From Candidatus Eiseniibacteriota bacterium (GTDB taxonomy: Bacteria > Eisenbacteria > RBG-16-71-46), in contig JAXDBZ010000302.1 of the NCBI GenBank assembly GCA_034678345.1, positions 1-43,133 on the forward strand: 43,133 nucleotides of DNA. The letters are read 5' to 3'. A model generated the notes under the pieces. It saw nothing but the letters and a program-made list of their open reading frames with translations, was not told where the DNA came from and searched no databases. Position 1 is the stretch's first letter. Each line of letters begins with the position of its first letter. Position numbers and translations under genes: made by a program. Shown here piece after piece: positions 16,968 to 42,200 of this stretch.

Positions 16968-17044
<77 letters not shown>

Positions 17045-25141: not shown

Positions 25142-26383
25142 GTGACCCCGCTCGGTGGCACCGAGTGGGCGGCACTGCTCGTCTTCGCCCTGACCTACCT
25201 CGTCCTCGGCTTCGGCGCCCTGCCTCCGCTGCGTGTGGATCGCACGGGCGCGGCGTTGATCGGCGCCTCCGCGATGATCGGCTTCGGCGTGCTGACGCCC
25301 CAGCAGGCGGTCGCCGCGGTGGACTTCCAGACCATCGGGCTGCTCTTCGGCATGATGGTCGTCGTTGCCCACCTGCGCCTGGCCGGCTTCTTCCACTGGC
25401 TCGACGCCCGCGCCCTGGCGGGGGTGCGCTCGCCCCGCGGCAGGGTCGTGCTGCTCCTGTGGCTGTCAGGCGCCACATCGGCACTGTTCGTCAACGACAC
25501 GGCGTGTCTCCTGCTCACGCCGCTGGCCCTCGAGAGCGCGCGGGCGCTCCGGCGCGACCCGCTGCCCTTCCTGCTGGCCGTCGCCATGGGCGCCAATCTC
25601 GGCAGCGTCGCCACCATCGTCGGCAACCCCCAGAACATGCTGGTGGCGAGCTACTCCGGGATCACGTACGCCCGCTTCGCCGCCGTGCTCACCCCGGTGG
25701 CGATCGGCGCCCTGGGGCTGGCCAGCCTGCTGCTGCCCTGGCAGTTCCGCCGCGCCCTGGACGGGCCGCCGGCCCCGGACGCGGCGGCTGCCCCCGTCGC
25801 GGTGGGCCGGCCGCTGCTCGTGAAGTCCCTGGGCCTGACCGGCCTGCTGCTGGTGGCCCTGCTGGCGGGCATGACACCCAGCCTGGCCGCGCTGCTGGCC
25901 GCTTCCGCCCTTCTCATCACCCGCCGCGTGGACCCGCAGGATGTCTATGCCCGCGTGGACTGGTCGCTGCTCACCATGTTCGCCGGGCTGTTCGTCGTGG
26001 TGGCGGGGGTGGAGCAGGCCGGGCTCGTCGGCCGCGGTCTCGAGCTGGCCGGTCCGGGCGCGCGTCATTCCCTCACGGCCTTCGCCGGGGTGGTGGTCGG
26101 GCTCAGCAACCTCGTCAGCAACGTCCCGGCGGTGCTGGTGCTCAAGAGCTGGGCGGCGGGATTCCTCCCGGCGGAACGGACGTGGCTGCTGCTGGCCATG
26201 ACCAGCACGCTGGCGGGCAACCTCACGCTGGTCGGCTCGGTCGCCAACCTGATCGTGGTCGAGCAGGCGCGCCGCGAGACGCGTGTGGGCTTCTGGACCT
26301 ACGCGCGCGCCGGCCTGCCGCTCACGCTCCTGAGCCTGGCGTTCGGCCTCGGCTGGCTGCTGCTCGTCACGCCCGCCCGCTGA
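25142..26383 (+). CDS. ArsB/NhaD-superfamily anion permease (YbiR-like)
   Basis: About 10-12 TM segments. N-terminal block LRVDRTGAALIGASAMIGFGVLTPQQAVAAVDFQTIGLLFGMMVVVAHLRLAGFF, as in YbiR-type transporters. GTG start. Confidence 0.72.
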   Translation: MTPLGGTEWAALLVFALTYLVLGFGALPPLRVDRTGAALIGASAMIGFGVLTPQQAVAAVDFQTIGLLFGMMVVVAHLRLAGFFHWLDARALAGVRSPRGRVVLLLWLSGATSALFVNDTACLLLTPLALESARALRRDPLPFLLAVAMGANLGSVATIVGNPQNMLVASYSGITYARFAAVLTPVAIGALGLASLLLPWQFRRALDGPPAPDAAAAPVAVGRPLLVKSLGLTGLLLVALLAGMTPSLAALLAASALLITRRVDPQDVYARVDWSLLTMFAGLFVVVAGVEQAGLVGRGLELAGPGARHSLTAFAGVVVGLSNLVSNVPAVLVLKSWAAGFLPAERTWLLLAMTSTLAGNLTLVGSVANLIVVEQARRETRVGFWTYARAGLPLTLLSLAFGLGWLLLVTPAR

Positions 26384-26475
26384 CACCGCCCGGTCCCGCT
26401 TGGAAACCGCGTCCCGCTCGGCTAGCGTGTGACGGTCCGGTCCGCCGCATCGCCGGAGTCACGAGGAGGACCACC

Positions 26476-27747
26476 GTGCCGTCCGACACGCCCCAGAACG
26501 CCCCCGCCACCACCCGCTTCCCCTGGTACGCGGCGGTCTCTCCGCTCCACGACCCCGCGGCGCTGCGCGGCGTGCTGGAAGGCTTCGGCGCCGCCCTGCG
26601 GACGCTCGGCGGGGAGCGCTGGGATCCCGCCGCCGGCCGGCATGCCGCCGCCGCCGGTAGCCCGGTCGTGCTCGTCGTCACCGGCGGCACCGAGCGCCTC
26701 ATCCTCGAGCGGGCGCACTTCGCCGGCGGAGAGCCGGCGCTGCTCGTGGCCCATCCGGGGCACAACTCGCTCCCGGCGGCCCTCGAGGTGCTGGCCCGCC
26801 TGCAGCAGAAGGGCGTGCGCGGCCGGGTCCACTACCTCGAGGGCCCGGGGGACGAGGAGGGCCTGCAGGGTCTCCGGGCCGCCCTGCACGACCGGGCGGT
26901 GCGGCGCGCCCTGCACGAGGCCCGCATCGGGCTCGTCGGTCAGCCCTCCGACTGGCTCGTGGCCAGCAGCCCGAGTCCGCAGGTGGTCCGCGAGGTATGG
27001 GGACCCACGGTCCTGCCCCTGCCCCTCGAGCCACTCTACGATCCGCCGGATACCGACATCGCCGTGCTCGGCGAGCGCACGGCGCGCGCGCTGCGCGCCG
27101 GGGCCGGGGCGGTGGTCGAACCCGCCGAAGCGGACCTGCCCGCCGCCGGGCGCGTGCACGCCGCCCTGCGCCGCATGGTGGACGCCGGGCGCCTCGATGC
27201 GCTGAGCCTGCGCTGCTTCGACCTCGTCACGCACCGCCGCACGACCGGCTGCCTCGCCCTGGCACGCCTGAACGACGAAGGCGTCATCGCGGGCTGCGAG
27301 GGGGATCTCGTCGCCGCCGTGGCCATGCTCTGGGTTCACCGCCTGCTCGGCGTGCTGCCGTGGATGGCCAATCCCTCCCGGGTGGATCGTGCCCGCGGCG
27401 TGCTGGCGCTGGCGCACTGCACGGTGCCGCCGTCGCTCACCACCGCCTACCGGCTGCGGTCGCACTTCGAGTCCGGGCTCGGCGTCGGGATCCAGGGGAC
27501 GCTGCCCGAGGGACCGGTGACGCTCGTGCGCATCGGCGGCCCGCGCCTGCAACAGCTGCGGGCCATCGACGGCGCGCTGGTCGGCAACACCGATCACCCC
27601 GACCTGTGCCGCACCCAGGTCGAGGTCGAGATCGGCCGCGACGCCCTCGAGGAGCTGCTGGCCCATCCGCTCGGCAACCACATGGTCCTCGTCACCGGCC
27701 ATCACGCCGCGACCCTGCGTCGCTGGCACGAGGCCATGATCGCCTGA
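26476..27747 (+). CDS. L-fucose/L-arabinose isomerase-family protein (uncharacterised subgroup)
   Basis: GAGGAGG lies 5 nt before GTG 26476. Family-like blocks: VIAGCEGDLVAAVAML, ALAHCTVP, and C-terminal HPLGNHMVLVTGHH. The upstream 437 codons of track ORF 25165..27747 are an alternate frame of the permease gene. Confidence 0.6.
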   Translation: MPSDTPQNAPATTRFPWYAAVSPLHDPAALRGVLEGFGAALRTLGGERWDPAAGRHAAAAGSPVVLVVTGGTERLILERAHFAGGEPALLVAHPGHNSLPAALEVLARLQQKGVRGRVHYLEGPGDEEGLQGLRAALHDRAVRRALHEARIGLVGQPSDWLVASSPSPQVVREVWGPTVLPLPLEPLYDPPDTDIAVLGERTARALRAGAGAVVEPAEADLPAAGRVHAALRRMVDAGRLDALSLRCFDLVTHRRTTGCLALARLNDEGVIAGCEGDLVAAVAMLWVHRLLGVLPWMANPSRVDRARGVLALAHCTVPPSLTTAYRLRSHFESGLGVGIQGTLPEGPVTLVRIGGPRLQQLRAIDGALVGNTDHPDLCRTQVEVEIGRDALEELLAHPLGNHMVLVTGHHAATLRRWHEAMIA

Positions 27748-28634
27748 TGCGCAGGGCCCCCGGGATGACCGCCGCAGTGCCCTGCCGGCCCGCGCTGGTG
27801 GTCCTCGACTTCGACGGGACGCTGACCGACGCCGACGCGCATGCCCCCGCGTTCCTCGCCGCCTCGCGGCAGGCGCTCCGGGCGCGGCTGGGCTGGCAGG
27901 GGGCCGCCACGCGGGACGCCTGGGAGCGCACCTGGGCCCTGGTCCGGGCGCTGCCTGCCGAGGCGGCCTGGCAAGTGGGTGGACTTCCCGCCTGCCCGGC
28001 CAACGGGGATCCCTATCTGACCGCCAACGGCGTCGTCCGGCGGCTCCTCGATGAGCATGGCGGCCTCGCCGGGGAGGAGTTGGCCGCCGCCGTCCTCGAT
28101 GTCCATCGCCGGGCCTACGCGCAGGTGCCTCCGCCGTTTCGCTCCGACGCTCCCGCGCTGCTCGAGGCGCTGGGGGCGGCGGGCCACCGTCTGAGCGTGG
28201 TCACGAACTCGCGCACCGGCACGGTCGAGCGCCTGCTCGGCTCGCTCGGCTTCCGCGGGCGCGGCGCGGTGCTGGTGCGCGGCGACGCCGCCAAGTTCAC
28301 GATCGGGAGCGACGGGGTCGCCGACGCCCGCCTCACCGGCCTGCCCCGGAGCGTCGAATGGCCCGAGTTGGCCCGACCGATCCACCTCCATCGGGGCCCG
28401 TACTTCCGCGTCCTCGCGCGCCTGTGGGACGAGACGGGCACCGGTCCGGACGACACGCTGGTCGTGGGGGACAACTTCGAGTTGGATCTGGCCATGCCGG
28501 CGGCGCTGGGCGCCCATGTCCACCTCGTGCTACGGGCGGGCACCCTGCCGCACGAGGAGCGCCTCGCGCGTGCGCTGGCGCGCGGCGACGCCGGTGCGGA
28601 CCTGATGGCCGTGCTGGCGCGGCTGGAGCGCTGA
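27747..28634 (+). CDS. HAD-superfamily hydrolase
   Basis: Motif I LVVLDFDGTLTD, motif II SVVTNS, motif IV VVGDNFELD. ATG 27747 overlaps the upstream stop by 1 nt; ATG 27765 is an alternative start. Confidence 0.7.
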   Translation: MRRAPGMTAAVPCRPALVVLDFDGTLTDADAHAPAFLAASRQALRARLGWQGAATRDAWERTWALVRALPAEAAWQVGGLPACPANGDPYLTANGVVRRLLDEHGGLAGEELAAAVLDVHRRAYAQVPPPFRSDAPALLEALGAAGHRLSVVTNSRTGTVERLLGSLGFRGRGAVLVRGDAAKFTIGSDGVADARLTGLPRSVEWPELARPIHLHRGPYFRVLARLWDETGTGPDDTLVVGDNFELDLAMPAALGAHVHLVLRAGTLPHEERLARALARGDAGADLMAVLARLER

Positions 28635-28649
28635 CCGCCGGCCGGGGCC

Positions 28650-29765
28650 TCAGCGGGCCGCCGGCAGCCCCCTCCCGGTCACGAGGTAGGTGGCGAAGCT
28701 GCCCAGCCAGTGCCCGCCTCCGTAGTGCTCGGCCGTCACGTGCGGCAGGCTGGCCTCGCGGTGGGCCCGCGCGGCCGCCAGCAGGCCCGCGCGTCGCGGA
28801 TCGCCGCCCGGAAGGCGCGCCGCGATCCCCTCGAGCATCCAGGCGCGGGAGAGATTGAGGCCGTACAGGTGGATCAGCTTGCCGTCGCTCGGATCGCTGA
28901 CGACGCCCGGCGCCAGCCAGTCGCTCCGGCCGTCGTGCGGCAGGCCCGGCAGAAGGCCCTCGAGCCAGCGCGCGAACTCCTCCGGCGGCAGCACCCGGGC
29001 GACCGCGACGGCCTCCGCCAGGCAGGGGGAGAGGAAGTCCTCGCCCGACGGCTCGTAGTCGAGCGGGCAGTCCCGGTCCGCGAGGAAGAAGCGGCGGATG
29101 GCGGCCTCGAAGACGGCGCTGCTGGCCGTGTCGCCCGTCGCCCGGGCCCAATCGAGGGCGAGCCCGAGGGCGAAGGCCGTCTGGCTGTGCTCGCCCGCGC
29201 GCACCGGTCGCGTGAGCTTCGGCAGCCAGGTCGTGAGTCGCCCGGCACAGACGCGGGCCAACGGCTCGACGTCCGCGGCCCACGCGCGCGCCTGCGGATC
29301 GTCCCACTCGCGCAGCTCGGCGTGGAGCTGCAGCAGCCAGGCCAGCCCGTAGGGGCGCTCGAACGAGGCGCGGTCGGGGCCCTCCAGATAGCGGACCTCG
29401 GCGGCGAGGTTCGCCGGGGTGAGGCTCCTCGCGAGCGCGGCCCGCGCCCGGGGCGCGAAGGCGGCGCCCGGGTGGAGACGGGCCAACCGCGCCAGCAGCC
29501 AGTGCCCGTGCACGGCGGAGTGCCAGTCGAAGCAGCCGCAGAAGGCGGGCGTCAGTGCCCGTGGCGGCTGCGCGTCGGCGTCGCCCTGCATCACGTGGGC
29601 GATCTTGTTCGGGTACTCCTGGTGCACGCAGGCGAGGGCGAGGTCGGCGAACCGCGCGACCGCGGCCGCCGGCAGCGGCTCGTCCGCGCGCGCCGGAGAA
29701 GGGAGCAGGCAGAGGATCAGGGACAGGGCGAGGCCCGCGACCGCACGGCGATGGGAGAGGTCCAT
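28650..29765 (-). CDS. Secreted DUF2891-family protein
   Basis: Signal peptide MDLSHRRAVAGLALSLILCLLPSPARA. Blocks CVHQEYPNKIAHV and FCGCFDWHSAVHGHWLL match my memory of DUF2891. Confidence 0.65.
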   Translation of the reverse strand: MDLSHRRAVAGLALSLILCLLPSPARADEPLPAAAVARFADLALACVHQEYPNKIAHVMQGDADAQPPRALTPAFCGCFDWHSAVHGHWLLARLARLHPGAAFAPRARAALARSLTPANLAAEVRYLEGPDRASFERPYGLAWLLQLHAELREWDDPQARAWAADVEPLARVCAGRLTTWLPKLTRPVRAGEHSQTAFALGLALDWARATGDTASSAVFEAAIRRFFLADRDCPLDYEPSGEDFLSPCLAEAVAVARVLPPEEFARWLEGLLPGLPHDGRSDWLAPGVVSDPSDGKLIHLYGLNLSRAWMLEGIAARLPGGDPRRAGLLAAARAHREASLPHVTAEHYGGGHWLGSFATYLVTGRGLPAAR

Positions 29766-29863
29766 GGCCGGATGATAGCCTCCCGTCGACCACGAGGCGA
29801 GGGCCGGGACCGTCGGTCCCGGGAGGGCGGGTGGGGTATGCTGGCGGTCAGGAGGCCGACCCC

Positions 29864-31288
29864 GTGACCGACGCCGTACGCCGAGCCCCGCGCTCTCCCC
29901 GCCGGTTCGCACCGGAGTGGCTGCTCTTCGCCCTCGTGGCCGCCGTCCTCGTCTGGCAGCTCCTGCTGCCGCCCATCGTGGGGCTGGCGGACAACGGCGA
30001 CTTCGTCCGCGTGCTCGAGCCGCTCGGCCTGCAGCACGCGGCGACCGAGTGGGGCGAGCGCTACTGGAGCTGGCTCGACCGGACCTACGTGCCGGGACCG
30101 CGCCTGCCGGTGGATCTCGAGTCCTCGCAGCTGCTGCTGAGCCGGGCCGCCCAGGGCGTGGCCGGGCTCTTCCGGCGCGACGGCGTGCTGGACATCCGCG
30201 TGCAGGGCGCGCTGCACCTGGCCCTCTACCTGCTGGGCATCGCCCTCGTACTGCGCGCGGCGCGCACCTTCCGCGCCCCGGTCCGCGTCACGCTGGGCCT
30301 GGCCCTGCTGGTCGCCGCCACCGACGTGGCCTACGTCGCGCCCCTGAACTCCTTCTACGCCGAGGCGGCCACGCTCGTCTTCCTCGCCCTCACCCTCGGC
30401 TTCGGCCTCGTCGCCCTGCGGGAGGACGACGCGCGCTCCTGGGCCCTGCCCGGCTATCTCGCGGCCGCCGCGCTCTTCGTGGCGGCCAAGCCACAGAACT
30501 ACCCGCTGGCGGTGCCGCTGGCCGCCGTGCCCTTCGCGCTGCTGCCCCGGCTGCGGCGGACCACCACGCGCGTGCTCGCGGTGGTGGCGGCACTGCTCGT
30601 CATGGTCATGGCCTACGACATGCACTCGCGGCTGCCGTGGTCGCAGACCATCCGCAACCGCTGGAACGACGTCTTCTTCACCATCCTCGCCGACTCCCCC
30701 GATCCGCGCGCCGACCTGGCGGAGTTCGACCTCGACCCGACGCTCGCCCGTTACGCGCGCGTGCCGGCCTTCGCCGACTCGATCCCCATCGAGGAGGTGA
30801 CCGCGCGCTACGGGTTCGGCGACGTGCTGCGCTTCCACGCGCGGCACCCCGCGCGCTTTCTGCACACGGCCTCGGTCTGCGCCGAGAGCGCCTTCGTGTG
30901 GCGGGACCCGCGCCTGGGCAACTTCACGCGTGACTCGGGGCGCCCGGCGGGCACGCTGGCGCACCAGTTCACCGCCTGGAGCCGCCTGCAGGGGCTCGTG
31001 CTGCCCCGCTCGCTGGCCTTCATCGCGGCGTTCCTGGCCGCCGTCTTCGTGGTGGCCCTGGTGGAGGCCGTCCGGTCGCGGCCCGCGACGGCGGGAGGGG
31101 GCACCGCGCTCCTGTGCGCCGCCCTGGCCGTGGCCGCGGGGATGGAGTTCGGCATCTGCGTGGTGGGCGACGGTTACTACGACATCGTAAAGCACCTGTA
31201 CCTGTTCCAGCTGCTCTTCGATGCCTGCCTCTTCGCCGCCGTGGCGTGGCTGGCGGGGCAGGTGGCGGCCCGGCGGCCGGCCCGCTGA
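29864..31288 (+). CDS. Large polytopic membrane protein of unknown function (possibly a GT-C-like glycosyl/lipid transferase)
   Basis: GGAGG lies 8 nt before GTG 29864. About 10 hydrophobic segments. An acidic loop after TM1 (GLADNGDFVRV) is reminiscent of GT-C first-loop motifs. The function is inferred only. Confidence 0.5.
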   Translation: MTDAVRRAPRSPRRFAPEWLLFALVAAVLVWQLLLPPIVGLADNGDFVRVLEPLGLQHAATEWGERYWSWLDRTYVPGPRLPVDLESSQLLLSRAAQGVAGLFRRDGVLDIRVQGALHLALYLLGIALVLRAARTFRAPVRVTLGLALLVAATDVAYVAPLNSFYAEAATLVFLALTLGFGLVALREDDARSWALPGYLAAAALFVAAKPQNYPLAVPLAAVPFALLPRLRRTTTRVLAVVAALLVMVMAYDMHSRLPWSQTIRNRWNDVFFTILADSPDPRADLAEFDLDPTLARYARVPAFADSIPIEEVTARYGFGDVLRFHARHPARFLHTASVCAESAFVWRDPRLGNFTRDSGRPAGTLAHQFTAWSRLQGLVLPRSLAFIAAFLAAVFVVALVEAVRSRPATAGGGTALLCAALAVAAGMEFGICVVGDGYYDIVKHLYLFQLLFDACLFAAVAWLAGQVAARRPAR

Positions 31289-31292
31289 AGCG

Positions 31293-31320
31293 GGCGGGCG
31301 GGGCAGGCACCCCGCCCGCC
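31293..31320. terminator. Perfect 11-bp GC hairpin between convergent genes; likely a bidirectional terminator
   Basis: GGCGGGCGGGG (31293..31303), loop CAGGCA, CCCCGCCCGCC (31310..31320). Confidence 0.5.
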
Positions 31321-31325
31321 ACCGG

Positions 31326-32990
31326 CTACCACTCCCGGAAGAGGCTCAGCACGGCGCCGCGCACGTTGTAGAAGGGCGTCTCGCCGTAGTCGAGACGGGC
31401 ATTGAGCCCCCAGTGCGCGCCGAACCACTGCGAGTAGCCGACGTTGAAGCCGGTCGCGTGGTAGTCCACCAGCGCCTGCCCTGGCCCCACCAACAGGTAG
31501 GAGACGTCCCCGGCGTCGTAGCCGACGCCGATGGACATGCGCCGCCAGACGACGTAGGCGAGGCCAACGCCGCCCGACACGGAGCGCGTGTCGCCCGGCT
31601 GGCCCCAGTCGCAGCGTCCCTGGGCGCTCAGGATCCAGTGCGGCAGGTAACGCACCAGGCTCAGGCCGAGACCGTCGGAGCGGTTGTCACCCTTGCTCTG
31701 GATGCGCGTGTAGCCCAGCGTCGTCACCACCTCCGCGATGGGGCGGCTGACCGCGGCGTCGAAGCGGTAGCGGTGGGCGATGTAGTCGCCCGTGCCCGAC
31801 GAGACGCCTGCCGTGACGCTGGTCTTGCCGAACCAGTGCGAGTAGGACAACCCGCCATCGAGGCTCTCGTCGCCGAAGCGGGCGGACCGCCCCGCCTCGA
31901 AGCGCCACGCCCAGCGATCCTCACGCCACAGCCCGAAGCGCGCGAACTGGCCATCGGCGTCGCCGTAGCCGTTCGAGTAGTGGCCCCACGAGGCCCCGGC
32001 CTCGACCGAGCGCGTGAGCGGCGGCAGGTCCGCCGCGCCAGCAGTGCCCGCCACCGCCACCAGGAGCGCCAGCAGCGCCGCGGCCACGCCGGCGGCTCCG
32101 TTGCCGTTGCCCCCGGCTTCGCCCTGCCGCCGCGCCCACACGCGGTCCTCGAGACGCATCGGGTGGTGCCAGCTCACGCCCCACGAGTAGAACGAGACGA
32201 ACACCAGCACGTTCACCGTCAGCCCGAAGACGAAGAACATCAGCGGCATGTACAGCAGGGACAGGTGGTGGATGACGTAGGCGTGCGCGGCATACTGCAG
32301 CGGCACCAGCACGATCATGTGCAGCATCGTCATCACGGTGAGCAGGGCCTTGCGGGCGACCCCGAAGTCGAGCACGTAGTAGGTGAAGCCCAGCACGATG
32401 GGGACCAGGGCGACGAGCATGAGTTGGGCGATCAACATGCCGTGGACGTAGCCCGCCCCGTCGTAGGGGAAGGCCTGCGGCCAGAGGCCGAAGAAGATCT
32501 GCGCGCCCCCCTGGAAGAAGGCCAGCAGGCGCAGCACGTAGCGCAGCGGCAGGATCACCGGTGGCACGGCGTACGAGCCGAAGGCCAGCGCGAGGGTGAA
32601 CAGCAGGCCCCACCACCACGCCCCGCTGCCCGGCAGGCCCGAGGCGAAGCTCAGGAACGGCACATCGAACTCGAGCAGCCCGTAGAAGTCGTAGCGGACC
32701 AGCGACACCTGCCCGGGGATATCCATCAGGCCCTGCCAGGTCTCGAGCATGCCCGCCCACGCCCGGGCCACCGGCCCGAGCAGGAGCAGGTACGCGACGA
32801 ACAGGGCCAGCGCCAGCAGTGCGGCCGGCACGAGCTTCTCCCGCTGCACGGGAGAGACGCGCAGCGCCCGGTGTTCCGGGATGTCGCCGCCGCCCCAGCC
32901 CCGCCGGCGCAGGCGCAGGACCTCCTGCCGCGTCGCGGCATCGGCCCAGGGAAGCTCGGCGTCCAGCATCAGGTTGCGTGCGTTCGCCAT
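31326..32990 (-). CDS. Fusion protein: N-terminal ~7-TM inner-membrane domain, then an internal signal-peptide-like segment, then a C-terminal YaiO-like outer-membrane beta-barrel
   Basis: ATG 32990 lies 1 nt after the upstream stop. Residues ~70-290 (track ORF numbering) form six long hydrophobic helices. Then comes MRLEDRVWARRQGEAGGNGNGAAGVAAALLALLVAVAGTAGA|ADL. The C-terminal ~260 aa show alternating beta-strand patterns, resemble E. coli YaiO by eye (VEAGASWGHYSNGYGD..; TLGYTRI..) and end in an aromatic residue (..LSLFREW). Confidence 0.65.
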   Translation of the reverse strand: MANARNLMLDAELPWADAATRQEVLRLRRRGWGGGDIPEHRALRVSPVQREKLVPAALLALALFVAYLLLLGPVARAWAGMLETWQGLMDIPGQVSLVRYDFYGLLEFDVPFLSFASGLPGSGAWWWGLLFTLALAFGSYAVPPVILPLRYVLRLLAFFQGGAQIFFGLWPQAFPYDGAGYVHGMLIAQLMLVALVPIVLGFTYYVLDFGVARKALLTVMTMLHMIVLVPLQYAAHAYVIHHLSLLYMPLMFFVFGLTVNVLVFVSFYSWGVSWHHPMRLEDRVWARRQGEAGGNGNGAAGVAAALLALLVAVAGTAGAADLPPLTRSVEAGASWGHYSNGYGDADGQFARFGLWREDRWAWRFEAGRSARFGDESLDGGLSYSHWFGKTSVTAGVSSGTGDYIAHRYRFDAAVSRPIAEVVTTLGYTRIQSKGDNRSDGLGLSLVRYLPHWILSAQGRCDWGQPGDTRSVSGGVGLAYVVWRRMSIGVGYDAGDVSYLLVGPGQALVDYHATGFNVGYSQWFGAHWGLNARLDYGETPFYNVRGAVLSLFREW

Positions 32991-32991
32991 C

Positions 32992-34107
32992 TCAGGCCTT
33001 CCCTTCCGCGGCGCGGGGGAGCACGAGTCCGCCGCCATGCGCCCAGACCGTGCCGTGCGTCACGGTGCCGGTCTCGACCTCGAGGCAGCGCACGGTCACC
33101 GTGGTGGGGCGCCCGGCCGCGCCCAGCTCGGCCGCGGCGCCGACCCGGGCGTCGCGCTCAGCGACCACCGGCCCCCCGATGCGGCAGTCCGTCCCGATCG
33201 CGAGATCGCGCCCCGACACCACCGCGCCCTCGACAGCCACGCCGGATCCAAGGTGCAGGTCGCCATGACTCTTCAGGCTGCCCACGATCCTCGTGCCCTC
33301 GCCGACCACCAGCTCGCCGGTGACCACGATGTCCGACGTCACCAGCCGGTGCGCCGGGATCTCGAGCCCGCTCCGCACCAGCCAGCGGCCCGCCGCGTCC
33401 TCGACCAGGCCCGGCACGTCCTTCGCGGTCCACGGCGCGAGCGCGGCGCCGTCCGCGGGCGCTCCGCGCCCCGCCGCCGGTTCCCCGAAGGCCACGACCG
33501 GGGCGTTCAGACGCTCGAAGCGACAGCCGGCTGCGAGGCGCAGCGCCCGTTCGGCCGAGGCGCGTCCGTGCAGTGCGCAGGATTCCCGCGCCGCCAGCGT
33601 GCCCCGGGCGTGCAGCCAGCGCAGCGACCAGCAGCCGCGGTCGAGGCGCAGGTCGCCGTGCGACAGGACGGCGCGGCAGACGGTGCCCTCGCCGACCTCC
33701 ACGTCACCGCCCCCGTAGACCTCCAGCGGGAACAGCGCCCGGGCGGGCAGTCCCAGCCTCCCGGCGCCCACGGTAACCGCCGGACAGGAGATCGGACCGG
33801 CCGGCGGCACGGTCACGCGGGCCGGGGCGTCGTCGGGCAGCACCACGTACGGCGTGCCGTCCTCGAAGCGGCCCTCGATGGGGCCCCCTCCGGCTCCGCA
33901 GGCCGCCAGCGCCTCGCCCAGATGCCCACCGATCCACGCCTGGAAGGCGGTGGCGAAGTGACGGATGTCCACGTCGGCGCCGCGCACCACGCGCAGCGGC
34001 TTCACGTCCGTCCGCCGGCGCCACTCGAGGAGCGAGGGCAGCAGCGGCAGCGCCGCCCAGCCGACGAACAACGCCAGCACGCCGATGACCGCCAGGATCA
34101 TGGCCAT
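32992..34107 (-). CDS. N-terminally membrane-anchored beta-helix repeat protein (bactofilin/DUF583-like or hexapeptide-repeat-like)
   Basis: GAGGAGGA RBS 3 nt before ATG 34107. TM anchor MAMILAVIGVLALFVGWAALPLL followed by RRR. Repeats such as VVTGELVVGEGTRIVGSLKSHGDLHLGSGVAVEGAVVSGRDLAIGTDCRIGGPVVAERDARVG. Confidence 0.6.
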   Translation of the reverse strand: MAMILAVIGVLALFVGWAALPLLPSLLEWRRRTDVKPLRVVRGADVDIRHFATAFQAWIGGHLGEALAACGAGGGPIEGRFEDGTPYVVLPDDAPARVTVPPAGPISCPAVTVGAGRLGLPARALFPLEVYGGGDVEVGEGTVCRAVLSHGDLRLDRGCWSLRWLHARGTLAARESCALHGRASAERALRLAAGCRFERLNAPVVAFGEPAAGRGAPADGAALAPWTAKDVPGLVEDAAGRWLVRSGLEIPAHRLVTSDIVVTGELVVGEGTRIVGSLKSHGDLHLGSGVAVEGAVVSGRDLAIGTDCRIGGPVVAERDARVGAAAELGAAGRPTTVTVRCLEVETGTVTHGTVWAHGGGLVLPRAAEGKA

Positions 34108-35564
34108 GCGTCCTCCTCGTCGTTGATGGCGTGCGGATGATCGGTCTTCGACCAGCGCACCCGCGCCCCCGGTTCGCGCGGCCGCACCAGCTGCATCACG
34201 GTCTCGTGGGTGATGGTGAAGAGCCCGACCAGGAAGCCCAGCATGACCAGCGGCAGCAGGCGGATCCGCGCCCGCGAGCCGTCGAGGTACGAACCGGCGC
34301 TGACCTCGAAGAACGTCGCGAAGTTGCCGAGGACGCTGTAGGAGGTGACGATCAGGATGACGATCAACCCGGGCCGGTTCTCGCCCAGGTACCACAGCGC
34401 CATCGCCAGCAGCCAGCCGAGCATGACGATGGGCGACATCATGTAGACGTTGAGCAGCAGCCAGCCGTCGAGCTTCTCGCGGAAGCGCGTGCGCGGTCCG
34501 GCCAGCAGGTGCCCGGCGTGGGTGAAGAGCGCCTCGTTGTGTCCGCGCGCCCACCGACGCACCTGCCGCATCCGCTGCGGCCAGGTGGTCGGGACCTGCT
34601 CGTAGCACTCCGACCGGTTCTGGTAGACGGTCTTCCAGCCGCCGCGCAGCAGGCGGAAGGTGGCGTCGGTGTCCTCGGCCAGGGTGTCCACGCGCCAGCC
34701 GCCCACGCTCTCCAGGGCCCGGCGCCGCACCCCGCCCACCGTGCCGCCGTACTGCGGCACCAGCTTGAGGTTCATGCGAGCCTGCTGGTCCACCTGGTAG
34801 CCACCGGTGCGCTCGAGGTCGAGCAGCCGGGTGAGGAGGTTCCGCCCGACGTTGTGGGGGACGACGCGGCCCATGACGGCGCCCACCTCGGGGTCGAAGA
34901 AGGGCGCGACGAGCTGCTTGATGAGCCCGCGCCCGGGGATGTAGTCGGCGTCGAAGACCAGCGCGATGTCCGTGCTCACCAGGGTCATGGCGTCGCGGAG
35001 GGCCGCGGCCTTACCGGGCTCGCCCTTCCGGCGATGGTACGGGGTGACGACGCCCGGGTGGCGGGCCGCGAACTCGTCCACGATCGCGCCGGTCCGATCC
35101 TTGGAGCGGTCGTCGATCGGCAGGATGTGCAACCGGCCGGGCGGGTAGTCCACGTCCAGCAGCGCGGTCAGGATGCCCTCCATGACCGGCTCCTCGTTGT
35201 GGGCCGGGACCAGCACTGTGACCTCGGGCCAGTCGGCGGTGTCGATGTCGAGGTAGGGATGCCGCTGCGTCCCGTGCAGACGGTTCAGCGTGAAGCCGTA
35301 GTGACGGGTGGTGTACACGCAGATCACGAGCAGGATCGCGTAGAGCGGGTAGAGCATCGCCAGGATGTACCAGGGACGCTCGGGACGCTGGCCGACGGGG
35401 ATCGGCGCGTCCCAGGCCCAGGCGACCGCCACGGCCAGCAGACCCGCGGCGAGGAGGACCGCGGCCAGGCCCCCCGGCCGGAACCGAAGCGTCGGGAGGC
35501 ACGCGGCCGGGCGCCCGGCGGGGGCGGAACGACGACGGGCGGACATCCGAGGCAGGAAATTCAT
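34098..35564 (-). CDS. Processive membrane-embedded family-2 glycosyltransferase (PgaC/NodC/cellulose-synthase-like polysaccharide synthase)
   Basis: Two N-terminal and ~4 C-terminal TM helices flank a GT-A domain with VLVPAHNEE, PIDDRSKD, VFDADY (DxD), LAEDTDATF (ED) and RMRQVRRWARG (QxxRW). ATG 35564 overlaps the upstream stop (ATGA). Confidence 0.82.
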   Translation of the reverse strand: MNFLPRMSARRRSAPAGRPAACLPTLRFRPGGLAAVLLAAGLLAVAVAWAWDAPIPVGQRPERPWYILAMLYPLYAILLVICVYTTRHYGFTLNRLHGTQRHPYLDIDTADWPEVTVLVPAHNEEPVMEGILTALLDVDYPPGRLHILPIDDRSKDRTGAIVDEFAARHPGVVTPYHRRKGEPGKAAALRDAMTLVSTDIALVFDADYIPGRGLIKQLVAPFFDPEVGAVMGRVVPHNVGRNLLTRLLDLERTGGYQVDQQARMNLKLVPQYGGTVGGVRRRALESVGGWRVDTLAEDTDATFRLLRGGWKTVYQNRSECYEQVPTTWPQRMRQVRRWARGHNEALFTHAGHLLAGPRTRFREKLDGWLLLNVYMMSPIVMLGWLLAMALWYLGENRPGLIVILIVTSYSVLGNFATFFEVSAGSYLDGSRARIRLLPLVMLGFLVGLFTITHETVMQLVRPREPGARVRWSKTDHPHAINDEEDAWP

Positions 35565-36244
35565 GGCGCCACCAAGAGTCGGAACGAGCGGAACTGGGCC
35601 GTACCGTTGCGCACCGCCAGGTGCGGCTCGCGGTACCGCCCGGTGGGATAGCGCTGGTCCGAGCGGTACAGCCGCCGCCCATCCAGCCAGAGGTACACGC
35701 GGCCGTCGCGGACGGCGAAGGCCAGCGCGTGCCAGGTCGCGAGGCTCACCGCCTCGAGGGGCATGACCACCTTCAGTACGTAGTCGTGGCGGGCCACCAT
35801 GTGGCGGGCGCTCAGGCGCTCCAGACCGCCGAAGGCGACGGCACCGCTCTCGCAGGTCAGTTCGCGGCTGTCGCGCGTGAGCAGGTGCACCTCGGTGTGC
35901 CGGCCGGCGGAATCGGGCACGATGCGGACCTGCGTCTCGAGCAGGAAGTCGCCCCCGTGTTCGACCGGGCAGAAGTACACCGCGAAGTCGCCCCGGTCCT
36001 CGCGACCCTCGAGCAGCCCATCCGCGACCCGCCAGTCGCCCCAGCCCCAGGCCCCCGGGAAGGGCCCGTCGCGGAAGCTCCAGGACGACGCCTCGCGCCA
36101 GGGCATGCCCTCGACCATCAGGTCGGCCTCGCCCGACGTGCGCGGGACGCTCTCGTAAACCTGCCGGAACGCGCCAGGGCCCAGGCGCAGGACGAGCAGC
36201 AGGAGCACGAGCAGCAGCCCCAGGAGAAAGAGGAGCCGGCGCAT
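35561..36244 (-). CDS. Signal-anchored protein with a concanavalin-like jelly-roll domain (DUF1080/LamG-like)
   Basis: Leu-rich N-terminal anchor MRRLLFLLGLLLVLLLLVL. Then W..W.V.DG.L.G / DF.LE / V.LW.DG spacing (GDWRVADGLLEG, GDFLLETQVRI, GRVYLWLDGRRL), typical of DUF1080-type domains. Confidence 0.5.
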   Translation of the reverse strand: MRRLLFLLGLLLVLLLLVLRLGPGAFRQVYESVPRTSGEADLMVEGMPWREASSWSFRDGPFPGAWGWGDWRVADGLLEGREDRGDFAVYFCPVEHGGDFLLETQVRIVPDSAGRHTEVHLLTRDSRELTCESGAVAFGGLERLSARHMVARHDYVLKVVMPLEAVSLATWHALAFAVRDGRVYLWLDGRRLYRSDQRYPTGRYREPHLAVRNGTAQFRSFRLLVAP

Positions 36245-36619
36245 CAGGCCGGTTCCCGGAACGAGGCAAGCGCGGCACGCCCTGCCATGGCGCGCGCCGC
36301 GCCGCCGTCCATCTCGCGCGAATCGCCGTTGTGTCGGCTCATCCGTGATCGCTCCCGGCGGGAGACGACTCGTCCCCCGCGCAGCATCCTGCCGCTCCGG
36401 CGGCTGTCGTGTCGGCCACGATTCGCCGGCACCGGCCCGCGGGCCGGCGCATGCAGGTTATCGGCCGGCGGGAGGCCTGACTAGAGGGATCCCGAGGGGG
36501 GGCCCGAGGGGCCCCGGCGCCGCCTGCGAAGCTGGAACTGCCCCCGCCGGAGTGGTAGCGTGCCTTCAATCCCGCCCGGGGAAAGGGCGGCGTGGCGATC
36601 CACACCTCGGAGCGAAGCC

Positions 36620-37207
36620 ATGGCAGACCTCGCGCATGCCCTCACGCAGATCCTGGGCGGTGACGCCGCCCGGCAGATCGGCCGCCAGCTTGGCGCCGAC
36701 GACTCGACCACCCGGACGGCCATCTCGGCCGCTCTACCCGTCCTCCTGGGCGCCCTCGCCCGGAACAGCGCGAGCCGGGACGGCGCGGACGCATTACACG
36801 GGGCGCTGGCGCGCGACCACGACGGCAGCATCCTGGACGACGTCGGCAGCTTCCTGAACGACCCGCAGGGCGGTCCCGGGGCCGGCATCCTGCGGCACGT
36901 CCTCGGCACGCGGCAGCCGGTGGCCGAACAGGCGCTGGCCAAGGCCAGCGGCCTCGACTCGGCCGGGGCCACGAAGCTGCTCACGATGCTCGCCCCGTTG
37001 GTGCTGGGGGCGCTGGGTCGGGCCCAGCGCCGGGACGGCCTCGACGCCGGGGGACTTGCGGGCATGCTCGGCCGCGAGAGCGAGGGTCTGGGCCAGACCG
37101 CCCCGGGACTGATGGGCATGGTCACCCGTCTCCTCGATCAGGACCAGGACGGCTCGGTCGTGGACGAGCTGGGTGGTGTGCTGGGCAAGCTGTTCGGCGG
37201 CCGCTAG
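36620..37207 (+). CDS. DUF937-family protein
   Basis: Repeated helical modules: ..AISAALPVLLGALARN.., ..GAGILRHVLG.., ..ATKLLTMLAPLVLGALG... ATG 36620 with upstream GGAG. Confidence 0.65.
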   Translation: MADLAHALTQILGGDAARQIGRQLGADDSTTRTAISAALPVLLGALARNSASRDGADALHGALARDHDGSILDDVGSFLNDPQGGPGAGILRHVLGTRQPVAEQALAKASGLDSAGATKLLTMLAPLVLGALGRAQRRDGLDAGGLAGMLGRESEGLGQTAPGLMGMVTRLLDQDQDGSVVDELGGVLGKLFGGR

Positions 37208-37246: not shown

Positions 37247-37513
37247 ATGGGAGGCCTTCTCTGGACGATCGTGATCGGTCTGGTCGCGGGTGCCCTGGCC
37301 AAGCTCATCATGCCGGGCAAGGACCCGGGTGGGATCATCGTGACCATCCTGCTGGGGATCGGAGGTGCTCTGCTCGCGACTGTCCTCGGCCGCCTGACCG
37401 GCTGGTACGCGCCCGACCGGGGCGCCGGCTTCATCGCCGCCACGCTCGGGGCGATCGTCATCCTGCTCGTCTACCGCTGGTACAAGAAGCGCCAGGCGGC
37501 CCCGAAGGCCTAG
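37247..37513 (+). CDS. GlsB/YeaQ/YmgE-family small stress-response membrane protein
   Basis: MGGLLWTIVIGLVAGALAKLIMPGKDPGGIIVTILLGIGGALLATVLG. GGAAAGGAG RBS. Confidence 0.85.
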   Translation: MGGLLWTIVIGLVAGALAKLIMPGKDPGGIIVTILLGIGGALLATVLGRLTGWYAPDRGAGFIAATLGAIVILLVYRWYKKRQAAPKA

Positions 37514-37925: not shown

Positions 37926-38018
37926 CGAGTCGCGCGGCGATTCGGGATTGAATGCCCCGCACGCCTGGTGCATTCTGTCGGCGTTCCGATCGCATCCCGC
38001 TCCCGGAGGAACCCGACC

Positions 38019-38876
38019 ATGCGCTGGAAGGGGCGTGAGCAGAGCGGCAACGTCGAGGACCGCCGCGGTGTCGGCGGCGGTGGGCTCGTGCTCGGCGGCG
38101 GCATCGGCACCGTCGTGCTGGTGGCCGCCTACCTGCTGCTGGGCGGCGATCCGTCGCAGCTGTTCCAGATGCTGGGACAGACACAGATGTCCAGCGGCGG
38201 TGGCATCCAGACGGAGCAGACCGGCGGCATCGCCGACGAGGGCCGGGAGTTCGTCGCCGTCGTCCTCAAGGACACCGAGGACGTCTGGGGCGCCCTGTTC
38301 GCGGCGGCGGGCCGTACGTACGAGCCGCCCGCAGTGGTGCTCTTCAGCGGCGGCGTGCAGTCCGCCTGTGGGGTGGCGGGATCATCGACCGGCCCGTTCT
38401 ACTGCCCCGCCGACGGCAAGGTCTACATCGACCTGAGCTTCTACGACGAGCTGCGCGACCGCTTCGGCGCCCCCGGCGACTTCGCCCAGGCCTACGTCAT
38501 CGCCCACGAGATCGGCCATCACGTGCAGAACCTGCTCGGCGTCTCGGAACGCGTCGCCGCACTCCGCGAGCGGTTGTCGGAGCGCGAGGCCAACGAGCTC
38601 TCGGTGCGCGTCGAGCTCCAGGCCGACTTCTATGCCGGCGTCTGGGCGCACCACGCGCAGCGGACGAAGCGGATCCTCGAGGAGGGCGACATCGAGGAGG
38701 CGCTGAACGCCGCCAGCGCCATCGGCGACGACCGGCTGCAGCGGCGGTCCACCGGCACCGTGACGCCGGACTCGTTCACGCACGGCACCTCGGATCAGCG
38801 GATGCGCTGGTTCCGCCGCGGCTTCGAGACCGGCGACCTGGCGCAGGGCGACACGTTCTCGGCGGACAGGCTCTGA
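38019..38876 (+). CDS. ypfJ: YpfJ-type neutral zinc metallopeptidase
   Basis: MRWKGREQSGNVEDRRG, one TM segment, and the HExxH site AYVIAHEIGHHVQN. GGAGGAA RBS. Confidence 0.85.
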   Translation: MRWKGREQSGNVEDRRGVGGGGLVLGGGIGTVVLVAAYLLLGGDPSQLFQMLGQTQMSSGGGIQTEQTGGIADEGREFVAVVLKDTEDVWGALFAAAGRTYEPPAVVLFSGGVQSACGVAGSSTGPFYCPADGKVYIDLSFYDELRDRFGAPGDFAQAYVIAHEIGHHVQNLLGVSERVAALRERLSEREANELSVRVELQADFYAGVWAHHAQRTKRILEEGDIEEALNAASAIGDDRLQRRSTGTVTPDSFTHGTSDQRMRWFRRGFETGDLAQGDTFSADRL

Positions 38877-39032: not shown

Positions 39033-39053
39033 CGGCAGGGAAGACGTGCCAGA

Positions 39054-39089
39054 GCGCGGGGACGGGTGCCCGAGCACCCGTCCCCGCGC
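39054..39089 (+). terminator. Perfect 16-bp GC stem with a CCGA loop, 21 nt after the small ORF
   Basis: GCGCGGGGACGGGTGC (39054..39069), CCGA, GCACCCGTCCCCGCGC (39074..39089). Confidence 0.55.
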
Positions 39090-39290
39090 GCGTCCCGGCA
39101 GGGCATCCATCGCCCCGTCTCCGCGCCCGTGACCGGGCCGCCCGCGTCCGTGCTCCATCCCCGCGCGCGGCTTTGTCCCGCCCCGCCATCCGTCGTAGCC
39201 TGCCCGCCACGACCCGCCCCAGGCCCGGGGCAGTGCAAGACACATCGCCCGGCCGGCGATCCTCCGCCGGCCGTCGCTCGTGGAGGGAGT

Positions 39291-42200
39291 GTGCGCGACC
39301 GCGTCCGTACCCGTGTCCTCTGGCTCGCATCCGTGCTCTCGTTCGCCGTGCTGTCGGCCGCTCCCGTGTGGGCGGCCGAGCCCGCGCTGTGGCTGCGCTA
39401 TCCGGCCATCTCCCCGGACGGCAGGACCGTGGTCTTCAGCTACCACGGCAACCTCTGGTCCGTCCCGGCCGCGGGGGGGCAGGCCGTGGCGCTCACGGTG
39501 AGCGCCGCGCACAACACCCGCCCGGTCTGGTCCCCGGACGGCACGCGGCTCGCCTTCGCCTCGGACCGCCACGGGAACTTCGACGTCTTCGTCATGCCCG
39601 CCACCGGCGGCGAGGCGACGCGCCTCACGTTCCACTCGGCCGACGAGTTCCCGTCCAGCTTCACACCGGACGGGCAGCGGGTCCTCTTCGGCGGCACCGT
39701 GCTCGACGCCGCCACGAACGTGCAGTTCCCGGCCGGGGTGCTGTCGGAGCTGTACGCGGTGGACCTCGTCGGGCACATGCCCGAGCAGGTGCTGAGCACC
39801 CCGGCGAACTACGCCGTCTACGACTGGGCCGGCAAGCGGCTGGCCTACTCGGACCAGCGCGGCATGGAGATGGAGTGGCGCAAGCACGACAACTCCTCCT
39901 TCGCGCGCAACGTGTGGGTGTGGGACGTGGCCGCGAACCGGCACACGCGCCTGACGGACTTCGGTGCCGACGACCGCCAGCCGGTGTGGGGCCCCGACCA
40001 GGTCTCGCTCTACTTCCTGTCCGAGCGGAGCGGCACGTTCAACGTCTGGCGGCTCGACCTCGCCGATCCGGCACGGCCGACGCAGGTCACGACGCACGTC
40101 ACGCATCCGGTGCGGTTCCTCTCCAGCTCGCGGGCCGGCGACCTGTGCTACGGCTGGGACGGCGGCATCTGGGTGCGCCCCGCCGGCGCGACGGCCAGCG
40201 TCCCCGTTCCGGTGACCATCCCCGCCGACCGCCGCGACCGCGAGACGGCGCCCCGGGACGTGTCGGGAGAGATCTCGGAGTTCGACGTGTCGCCCGACGG
40301 GCAGGAGGTGGCCTTCGTCGCGCGGGGCGAGGTCTTCGTGGCCGAGGTCGAGCACGGCACCACCCGTCGCATCACGAACACCCCCGGGCAGGAGCGCTCG
40401 GTGGGCTTCTCGCCCGACGGCCGCAGCCTGGTCTACGCCGCGGAGCGCGACGGCGGCTGGAAGCTCTACCGCACGGACCTCGCCGACCCCGAAGAGCCCG
40501 ACTTCTTCAACGCCACGGCGATGAAGGAGACGCTGGTGCTGGGCGGCGACGCCGACGTCTTCCAGCCCCGCTTCTCGCCGGACGGCGCCGAGGTCGCCTA
40601 CCTCGAGGAGCGCACCGCCCTCAAGGTGCTGAACCTGAAGAGCGGGCGCTCGCGCACGCTGCTGCCCGGCGACGTCAACTACTCCTACACGGACGGCGAC
40701 CAGTGGTTCGAGTGGTCCCCGGACGGTCGCTGGCTGGCGCTCACCTTCCTGAGCCATGAGCGCTGGTCGGAGGAGGTGGGGCTCGTGCCCGCCTCAGGCG
40801 ACGGCAAGCTCGTCAACGTGACCCGTAGCGGCTTCGAGGACTCCTCACCCAAGTGGGCGCGCAAGGGCGAGGTGCTCATCTGGCTCACCGACCGCTTCGG
40901 CCTGCGCAACCAGTCGGGCTTCCCCAGCGAGGCCGACGTGCACGCGGCCTTCCTGACCCGCCGGGCCTACGACCGCTACGTCCTCGACGAGGCGGCCTTC
41001 GACCAGCTCAGGGCGCGCGAGAAGGAGGGGGAGAAGAAGGGCGAGGGGGAGAAGCCGGCCAAGGACAGGGGCCGCGATACCGCGAAGGCGGCGGTCAAGC
41101 TCCCGCCGCCGGTGGCGATCGAGTTCGAGGGGCTCGACGACCGCATCGTGCGCCTGTCCGTGGCCTCGGCCGACCTGGCGGGGGCGGAGCTCTCGGCCGA
41201 CGGCGAGACCCTCTACTACCTCGCCCGCTTCGAGAAGGGCTACGACCTCTGGAAGTACGTGCCGCGGAAGAAGGAGGCCAGGCTGATCGCCAAGCTCGGC
41301 GCCGACCGGGCGCGCTTCGCGCTCGACCGCGAGGGCAAGAAGGCGTTCGTGCTGGCGGACGGCAAGCTGTCCACGGTGGAGCTGGAGGGGGGCAAGAGCA
41401 CGCCGGTCCGGGTCGCGGCGCGGATGGAGCTGGACGCGGCCGCCGAGCGCGGCTACCTCTTCGACCACATCTGGCGTCAGACGCTGAAGAAGTTCCACGA
41501 CCCGGGCATGCACGGGGTGGACTGGGCGGCGACGGGCGCGGCCTACCGGCGCTTCCTGCCCTCCATCGACAACCCCCGCGACTTCGCCGAGCTGATCTCC
41601 GAGATGCAGGGCGAGCTGAACGCCTCGCACACCGGCGGGCGCTACCGGCCGACCCGATCCGACGGCGACGAGACGGCGGCGCTCGGCTTCTTCCCCGATC
41701 CCGCCCACCGCGGGGACGGCGTGGCCATCGCCGAGGTGATCGAGGGCGGCCCGCTGGGCAAGGCGGGCACGAAGGTGCGCGCGGGCGTCGTGATCGAGGC
41801 GATCGACGGCTCGCGCATCGCCGCCGGGACCAACTGGTATCGCCTCCTGAACCGGAAGGCCGATGCGCCGGTGCGCCTGGCGCTCTTCGATCCGAAGACC
41901 AACGGCCGCTGGGAGGAGACGGCGAAGCCCGTCTCATGGGCGGCCCAGCAGCGGCTGCTCTACCAGCGCTGGGCACGCTCCCGGCGCGAGCTGGTGGACC
42001 GGCTCTCGGGCGGCCGCATCGGCTACGCACACATCCGGGGCATGAACGACGGCGCCTACCGCGAGGTCTTCGACGAGATCTTCGGCCGCGCCGTGGACAA
42101 GGACGCCATCGTCCTCGACACCCGCTTCAACGGCGGCGGCAACCTCGTCGAGGCGCTCACTGTGTTCCTGAGTGGCAGGCAGTACGCCCGGAACACGCCG

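Follow-up and report, generated by a model that had tools for sequence, protein, structure and literature searches.

Within a 43,133-nt stretch of DNA from a Candidatus Eiseniibacteriota bacterium (contig JAXDBZ010000302.1; hereafter the window, G+C about 73%), four closely packed minus-strand genes, here called A, B, C and D, face a convergent fifth gene, E. We consider it probable that this locus is one variant of a conserved, undescribed machine for synthase-dependent polysaccharide biosynthesis and export, in which the membrane glycosyltransferase of family 2 (GT2) encoded by B would work with inner-membrane partners and an outer-membrane barrel of the YaiO family. The reading is carried by the gene structure, the family and fold assignments of the parts, their conservation and natural fusions in other bacteria, and domain orders that all fit one topology. 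To our knowledge, synthase-dependent secretion is understood for few polysaccharides (cellulose, alginate, poly-beta-1,6-GlcNAc or PNAG, Pel and, lately, Nfr), and those few underlie most knowledge of how biofilm matrix is exported. An earlier note on this DNA had described a synthase-type operon with a non-canonical part list and had suggested that it might be an intact, elaborated version of the Escherichia coli yai cluster; the former description stands as that of a conserved cassette, while the latter does not. The features of the locus are as follows, with protein lengths in amino acids (aa).

35561-36244, minus strand: gene A, 227 aa, open reading frame (ORF) with translation
34098-35564, minus strand: gene B, 488 aa
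32992-34107, minus strand: gene C, 371 aa
32091-32990, minus strand: gene D, six-transmembrane (6TM) part, aa 1-300
32010-32090, minus strand: gene D, linker with an internal signal-peptide-like segment
31326-32009, minus strand: gene D, YaiO barrel part, aa 328-554 plus stop codon
stem at about 31296-31317: GC-rich hairpin lying between D and E, whose stops (31326 and 31288) converge
29843-31288, plus strand: gene E, convergent, start uncertain (the ORF is open from 29555)

All four minus-strand ORFs are present, and the coupling-type junctions described earlier are exact to the nucleotide. A and B share an ATGA overlap (35561-35564), B and C overlap by 10 nt (34098-34107) with a Shine-Dalgarno sequence, GAGGAGG, 4 nt upstream of the ATG of C, and a 1-nt gap separates the end of the C stop codon (32992) from the ATG of D at 32990, which is preceded by GGAAGGGAAGG. 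The strong hairpin said to follow the genes does exist, the 51-nt stretch 31280-31330 folding at -35.2 kcal/mol, but against shuffles in 73% G+C DNA it reaches only z = -2.0 (6 of 200 shuffles are equally stable), it carries no U-tract, and a terminator scan of the locus makes no call there. Promoter and terminator consensus scans were uninformative at 73% G+C.

The product of gene B had been credited with DxD, ED and QxxRW motifs and transmembrane (TM) helices on both sides, and both the motifs (DDRS151, DADY205, EDTD297 and QVRRW334) and the hydropathy agree, with hydrophobic segments at aa 28-55 and 64-86 near the N-terminus and about four more between 368 and 457. Processive GT2s that form a channel are recognised by QxxRW and ED motifs together with a TM bundle at the C-terminus. 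B matches Pfam Glyco_tranf_2_3 (1.9e-30) as well as Cellulose_synt, its best NCBIfam match is PgaC_IcaA (9.4e-33) with CelA and NodC also found, and its nearest solved structures are PcManGT (6yv7, 1.3e-19) and BcsA (1.2e-16). A concern raised beforehand was that the GT2 might prove closest to non-processive enzymes; its best matches are instead PgaC_IcaA, BcsA and PcManGT. By these comparisons B is a PgaC/BcsA-like membrane GT2, closest to the processive membrane synthases, with predicted processivity and a putative translocation channel. B has no PilZ match, and its C-terminus extends about 30 aa beyond the last TM segment.

The conservation of the cassette was followed in two ways. An exhaustive profile hidden Markov model (HMM) search of 1.84 billion proteins returned 361 cluster representatives of the 6TM family of gene D; a word-indexed protein search of the same family gave only 13 and 22 matches, probably because its candidate list was flooded by hydrophobic words. 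When GTDB was scanned with one genome for each species, using patterns drawn from a closer alignment (the 47-sequence alignment being too diverse for pattern design), a set of 80 loci was obtained (numbered with L below), and parts were then counted with home-made HMMs on six-frame ORFs within 8 kb. GT2, C, 6TM and YaiO occur together within that distance in 68 of the 80 loci, so the gene-neighbourhood check proposed earlier finds the parts side by side in related and in very distant genomes; nine of the other 12 loci are cut by contig ends and three are without an adjacent YaiO gene. The carriers include Candidatus Eisenbacteria (the nearest relatives, at 76-88%), Krumholzibacteriia, Gemmatimonadota and many Acidobacteriota, Oxalobacteraceae (among them cultured Massilia, Duganella and Pseudoduganella) and other Beta- and Gammaproteobacteria, and Rhodothermales, Bacteroidota and Verrucomicrobiia, which places the cassette in at least eight bacterial phyla. 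Across phyla the GT2 is 54-66% identical to its orthologues, and the partner proteins 23-48%.

Gene order and fusions add to this picture. The clade of the window has the order A-GT2-C-6TM-YaiO followed by a convergent WsfD-like gene (E), and in most other phyla the order is GT2-C-[inserted genes]-YaiO-6TM. Natural fusions connect all the components to one another; they join 6TM to YaiO (P0106, P0108, P0135, the window, L002 and L008), C to 6TM (P0105, 692 aa) and 6TM to GT2 (P0145, 716 aa), and all of them are consistent with one predicted topology, in which A is periplasmic, C is cytoplasmic and the 6TM domain has both ends inside. What had been counted as four components is indeed four genes, but these hold five protein parts, since 6TM and YaiO are separate in the nearest relatives, and the WsfD-like protein makes a sixth.

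Gene D is the composite one. The AlphaFold2 (AF2) model of its aa 1-300 has six TM spans and a periplasmic beta-hairpin at aa 94-114 (pLDDT 77.6), and the domain bears a conserved cytoplasmic GGxIxxHRA motif. A profile search finds no Pfam or NCBIfam family and no PDB sequence match for it, and against PDB folds the best match of the model has an E-value of 0.47, with TM-scores of at most 0.25; the model thus describes an inner-membrane domain of novel fold. The fold searches suggested earlier for all four proteins were run for the 6TM and C models, and neither matches a solved PDB fold. The domain had been described as having seven TM helices; there are instead six, plus an internal signal-peptide-like helix, AALLALLVAVAGTAGA followed by AD, in front of the barrel. 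The linker consists of a GNGNG low-complexity tail, encoded by a (GGC AAC)n repeat of variable length, and then …AAGVAAALLALLVAVAGTAGA followed by ADL, with an AxA site. Beyond it, aa 328-554 match TIGR04390 at 9.7e-24 and 84.6 bits (cut-off 32) over profile positions 2-230, which places the domain in the YaiO family as had been proposed; Pfam OMP_b-brl is matched too (6.9e-7), and relatives carry PF19413. The protein ends in …FREW, and the C-terminal aromatic is conserved, such a residue being typical of outer-membrane BAM substrates, so that D has both the signal peptide and the C-terminal aromatic beta-signal of a YaiO-type barrel. The 6TM domain is also seen in other fusion architectures (P0175, 1496 aa; P0215, 666 aa), and its further partners include DUF11 repeats with a T9SS Por_Secre_tail and zinc-ribbon domains.

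Some homologues of D are full-length fusions, others are 6TM proteins on their own (300-325 aa), and a third group consists of barrels alone. In the closest relatives, the members read from the 90%-identity cluster of D, 6TM and YaiO are separate genes with a 4-nt overlap, and among these members the fusion is found in the window copy only. When the window linker (32010-32090) is aligned with L088 (6880-6960) and L089, the window lacks about 53 nt that include a Shine-Dalgarno sequence, a TGA stop and a GTG start; their loss joins the two frames, yet the barrel signal peptide retains its hydrophobic core and AxA site. The alignment indicates that the 6TM and YaiO genes of the window were fused by the deletion of these roughly 53 nt. 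Independent 6TM-YaiO fusions occur in at least eight other lineages, each keeping a signal peptide with n-, h- and c-regions and an AxA site before the barrel. The barrel begins about 10 residues after the last helix, so it could reach the outer membrane only if the chain is cleaved there.

Since every other member read from that cluster has split genes, it could be asked whether the fusion in D arose from an error of sequencing or assembly and the four genes lie together by accident. We find this barely credible. The deletion is clean, removing ribosome-binding site, stop and start and restoring one frame with no homopolymer slip, and this, together with the independent fusions and their intact internal signal peptides elsewhere, leads us to reject an artefactual origin of the D fusion; an accidental neighbourhood is hard to square with its being kept in 68 of 80 loci over many phyla.

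Gene C encodes the membrane-anchored beta-helix protein that had been recognised from the sequence. Its AF2 model (pLDDT 92) shows an N-terminal TM helix, a helical linker and two beta-helical domains at about aa 77-207 and 234-363, of which the first carries four invariant arginines (R145, R163, R182 and R199). In the C family, 47 of 49 members match Pfam Bactofilin (PF04519) at E <= 0.01 (best 2.3e-9) and 18 match LbH_EIF2B; the window protein itself scores 19.5 bits against PF04519, below the gathering cut-off of 27.9. Among PDB sequences the C profile finds bactofilin 6ria (5e-3) and LpxD (1.4e-4), and a fold search with the model returns generic beta-helices only (best E 0.22) with no whole-protein match. 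A conserved RRR stands directly after the TM helix, so the positive-inside rule, together with the topology of the fusions, puts the anchored beta-helices probably in the cytoplasm. We also considered C as an acyltransferase akin to E. coli YaiX and rejected this, as the hhalign alignment covers just 23 columns and the matches to LpxD and GlmU are weak and at the level of the repeat.

Gene A had been read as a signal-anchored jelly-roll protein. It has a single hydrophobic segment (aa 1-29, a signal anchor), and while the window protein itself has no Pfam match, six of seven orthologues match PF06439 (DUF1080 / 3-keto-disaccharide hydrolase, ConA-like; best 7.7e-10), three of seven match Laminin_G_3, and the family profile matches the DUF1080 structure PDB 4jqt (8e-6 over 52 residues). 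Judged through its orthologues, A is probably a signal-anchored periplasmic ConA-like or DUF1080-type jelly-roll. In four loci the A-type domain is in frame with the GT2 itself, between two TM helices in the first periplasmic loop (L013 3103-5370; L016 4884-6920; L017 4733-6919; L018 97-3378). These four come from Gemmatimonadales, Krumholzibacteriia and Polarisedimenticola metagenome-assembled genomes (MAGs) and a MAG labelled 'uncultured Fibrobacteraceae'.

The genes inserted in most other phyla bear on what B might polymerise. They encode the non-hydrolysing UDP-GlcNAc 2-epimerase WecB (equivalog score 393 bits, cut-off 210), present in 64 of the 80 loci, and a 627-aa polysaccharide-deacetylase-domain protein; proteins containing Polysacc_deac_1 are found in 49 loci. 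The GT2s are orthologous and WecB and the deacetylase are common beside them, which points to a polymer of the N-acetylmannosamine (ManNAc) or N-acetylglucosamine (GlcNAc) type, often partly de-N-acetylated. The 43-kb window holds neither WecB nor a polysaccharide deacetylase. The lack of a deacetylase was correctly noted for the window but is a peculiarity of its clade, and with deacetylase and WecB in so many relatives the enzymology of the cassette lies nearer to the logic of Pga and Nfr than had been held. In many acidobacterial and proteobacterial loci the 627-aa protein shows a weak Polysacc_deac_1 and a GH42M-like match (L029 5211-7094; L020 4109-5992), and an additional 398-aa protein that belongs to no family occurs in 13 loci (e.g., L020 2909-4105).

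The convergent gene E matches NF051875 (glycan_WsfD) at 3.9e-103 and 345.6 bits (cut-off 80) over profile positions 3-452 of 452, and its orthologues carry PF27133 (YfdI_N). E-type genes are found in 12 of the 80 loci, and orthologues keep the same convergent position in L002, L004, L006 and L088; within the Eisenbacteria/Krumholzibacteriia clade, synteny with the cassette is preserved for the WsfD-like gene. E is, by sequence, a polytopic WsfD-family hexose transferase and probably a periplasmic branching glycosyltransferase. Among the window genes, none was seen for a polyprenyl-phosphate hexose synthase that would serve it.

These parts also bear on whether B makes a polymer at all. The GT2 could instead glycosylate a lipid or small molecule, as HpnI, MftF or a ceramide glycosyltransferase does, with the cassette remodelling a glycolipid or exporting it to the outer membrane. 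Secondary matches of B to MftF (3e-22), HpnB/HpnI (1e-14 and 6e-12) and Glyco_transf_21 (1e-9) lend this some weight, as do the small barrel and the lack of a periplasmic scaffold. Yet QVRRW, EDTD and the C-terminal TM bundle, with BcsA and PcManGT as the best structural relatives, are the marks of a polymer synthase, some lineages insert a periplasmic ConA-like domain into the enzyme, and both the WsfD-type branching transferase and the periplasmic-type deacetylase fit a glycan chain that is translocated. We therefore regard the glycolipid explanation as quite unlikely and return to the polysaccharide machine.

In such a machine, B would polymerise an N-acetylhexosamine-type chain from UDP-sugars at the cytoplasmic face and, in the manner of BcsA and PgaC, pass it across the membrane by a channel of its own TM helices. 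Since a WecB epimerase usually lies next to the orthologous GT2s, ManNAc and/or GlcNAc is the likeliest sugar. The 6TM protein and the cytoplasmic C would be obligate inner-membrane partners, possibly as co-synthase, scaffold or regulator, standing in for PgaD, the BcsB anchor or PilZ-type modules. A may be a carbohydrate-binding or -processing jelly-roll at the periplasmic exit of the synthase, and E may add hexose side branches in the periplasm from a polyprenyl-phosphate donor, so that in the window clade the polymer would possibly be modified by hexose branching in place of deacetylation. The YaiO barrel would form the outer-membrane exit, and the D polypeptide would be cut at its internal signal peptide between AGA and AD, presumably by signal peptidase I, freeing the barrel for the outer membrane. 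For the identity of the sugar, a physical complex of these proteins, the cleavage of the signal peptide and export through the barrel, we infer from sequence, structure prediction and comparative genomics.

Several observations weigh against this machine. B falls far under the equivalog cut-off of every characterised synthase in NCBIfam, and its weaker matches to MftF, HpnB/HpnI and Glyco_transf_21, quoted above, are to be counted here as well. At about 230 aa the YaiO barrel domain is small, and it comes without a periplasmic tetratricopeptide repeat (TPR) or scaffold domain. Lacking WecB, the deacetylase and a cyclic di-GMP (c-di-GMP) module, the window has its sugar assignment borrowed from relatives. 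L013, L017 and L018 hold the inner-membrane parts with no adjacent YaiO, and the predicted cytoplasmic siting of C has the positive-inside rule and the fusion topology as its whole basis. The searchable literature yields no description of YaiO function or of the cassette: papers mention yaiO chiefly as an E. coli PCR marker, and those on yaiP/yaiS, on bactofilin with synthase-dependent exopolysaccharide and on epimerase and deacetylase in Acidobacteria contain no cassette description that we could find. On balance, we are evenly divided over the broader proposal that these loci represent an undescribed, widespread 'YaiO-type' secretion class, in which a PgaC-like GT2 would work with a novel-fold 6TM protein and an anchored bactofilin-like C, the chain would leave through a TPR-less YaiO exit, and in several lineages an inner/outer-membrane polyprotein would be split at an internal signal peptide.

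The surroundings of the cassette differ between lineages. In the window, the remaining genes are housekeeping where genes could be called, and the following lie around the cassette.

28650-29912, minus strand: DUF2891, flanking the cassette
36560-37207, plus strand: DUF937, flanking the cassette
37247-37513, plus strand: Transgly_assoc, flanking the cassette
37968-38876, plus strand: Zn_peptidase, flanking the cassette
39033-42578, plus strand: tricorn-like protease (PD40 repeats, Tricorn_C1, PDZ_Tricorn, Peptidase_S41), unrelated to the cassette

The first four also flank the cassette in L088, and the last two of these four are found in the P0006 contig too, so the window is a close relative of the L088 and P0006 MAGs. 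Gene calls are ambiguous at 12570-16990 and 26383-28650, where high-GC ORFs overlap on both strands, and the B HMM gives a weak GT2-like match in the first of these stretches (14799-15059, plus strand). No c-di-GMP module was found among the window genes examined. A GAF-GGDEF diguanylate cyclase gene lies just past the cassette in the complete Eisenbacteria chromosome of L002 (13393-14433) and only there; no counterpart of it was found in the window. In L013, an unannotated 637-aa ORF stands downstream in place of YaiO. The cassette of Oxalobacteraceae is flanked by genes for a fatty-acid hydroxylase, an alpha/beta-hydrolase and a 510-aa protein of no family, all three conserved there (L046 2570-3391, 8796-9527 and 9998-11530; also L052, L053, L056, L057, L065 and L075), and L060 carries the latter two.

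The cassette is carried by lineages abundant in soil and sediment (Acidobacteriota, Gemmatimonadota, Eisenbacteria and Oxalobacteraceae), and its synthase is unusually well conserved for comparisons across phyla. Three of its putatively obligate partners have neither a characterised homologue nor a solved fold and could reveal a new coupling of polymerisation, regulation and outer-membrane exit that does without a TPR scaffold, and cultured carriers such as Massilia sp. SR12, Duganella sp. CF458 and Root1480D1 and Pseudoduganella guangdongensis DS3 make it directly testable. If our reading is right, the orphan YaiO family of E. coli outer-membrane proteins would gain its first functional context, and the inner/outer-membrane polyprotein would represent an unusual way for a bacterial machine spanning the envelope to be made. 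The recurrence of polyproteins joining an inner-membrane domain to an outer-membrane barrel is a separate curiosity for membrane-protein biogenesis.

Compared with known systems, the window shows no PilZ, Pga, Bcs, Alg or Pel partners, TPR or deacetylase in Pfam and NCBIfam searches, as the earlier note had held, and none of the flanking genes falls in a Pga, Bcs, Alg or Pel family. The closest parallel for the synthase is PgaABCD, which shares with the cassette a PgaC-like GT2 with QxxRW and flanking TM helices (PgaC being the best-scoring characterised relative of B), small inner-membrane partner(s) and a dedicated outer-membrane barrel, and many cassette relatives add a polysaccharide-deacetylase-domain protein. 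It could therefore be proposed that the locus is a divergent Pga-type system, in which B makes PNAG and the other proteins are PgaD, PgaB and PgaA diverged beyond recognition. PgaC_IcaA is indeed the best characterised family for B and its orthologues, and the deacetylase of the relatives would have its match in PgaB. However, B scores 113.7 bits against the PgaC equivalog TIGR03937, whose cut-off is 422.3, and neither A, C, D nor their neighbours match the PgaA porin or TPR, PgaB or PgaD in Pfam or NCBIfam. The barrel is of the YaiO family, with no TPR, and is not PgaA; the partners are a novel-fold 6TM domain (about 300 aa) and the bactofilin-like C, for which Pga has no counterpart, rather than the 2-TM PgaD; WecB, usually adjacent in the relatives, implies ManNAc, which is not part of PNAG; and the window copy is without a deacetylase. 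We consider a PNAG system very unlikely.

The Nfr system of E. coli, in which NfrB, the WecB-like NfrC, NfrA and YbcH produce a c-di-GMP-activated ManNAc-containing glycan that serves as the phage N4 receptor (PMC8669469, PMC8669472), resembles most cassette loci in combining a GT2 of the inner membrane with a UDP-GlcNAc 2-epimerase and a protein of the outer membrane. It differs in that B shares just 23% identity with NfrB (E 1e-4, GT2 core only; E 0.02 against the NfrB-type model NF011305) and is without the C-terminal c-di-GMP-binding domain of NfrB, in that the cassette has no NfrA- or YbcH-type protein, and in that Nfr has no C or 6TM. With no WecB near the window cassette either, membership in Nfr is ruled out. 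A related possibility is that the product stays at the cell surface or in the periplasm, as a glycan with an envelope role or a phage receptor like the NfrB/NfrC-dependent one, and is not released as a biofilm exopolysaccharide. The shared logic of GT2, WecB and outer-membrane protein speaks for it, and C as a cytoplasmic accessory recalls the cytoplasmic regulatory domain of NfrB itself; the distance from NfrB and the missing Nfr partners speak against it. Such an envelope glycan seems to us unlikely, and it departs from the export machine only in the fate of the polymer, on which sequence cannot decide.

Of the cellulose system BcsA-BcsB(-BcsC), the synthase is again similar, as BcsA is among the solved structures nearest to B and has the same motif set. 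The carbohydrate-binding domains of BcsB guide the nascent chain, and A, as a TM-anchored periplasmic jelly-roll beside the synthase or fused into it, may be comparable. B has no PilZ domain, though, A is one DUF1080-type domain of about 200 aa and not BcsB, and no BcsC TPR-barrel, BcsZ or other Bcs accessory family was found at the window locus by Pfam or NCBIfam. For E, the likeness is to WsfD of Paenibacillus alvei, the hexose transferase that branches the S-layer glycan, and to GtrS-YfdI-type family C glycosyltransferases, as it passes the WsfD model; it differs in its setting, which is not a lipid-linked S-layer glycan pathway but, in a candidate phylum of Gram-negative bacteria, a cassette built on a synthase-type GT2.

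The cryptic E. coli yaiS-yaiP-yaiX-yaiO cluster had been rightly cited for its order of GT2, beta-helix protein and YaiO barrel. Both barrels pass TIGR04390 (84.6 bits in the window, 182.4 for E. coli YaiO) and both GT2s score best against PgaC_IcaA. The idea of an intact version of that cluster nevertheless fails. The barrels have no pairwise BLASTP similarity, B is 23% identical to YaiP over 219 aa, YaiX, a soluble hexapeptide acyltransferase, can be aligned with C over just 23 columns of beta-helix repeat, the window has no gene similar to that of YaiS, a BshB1/LmbE-type deacetylase, and neither 6TM nor C has a homologue at the E. coli locus. The GT2, barrel and YaiX comparisons, together with this absence, rule out orthology with the yai genes, and the sequences suggest that the cassette and the yai cluster are at best parallel systems that use the same family of outer-membrane barrel.

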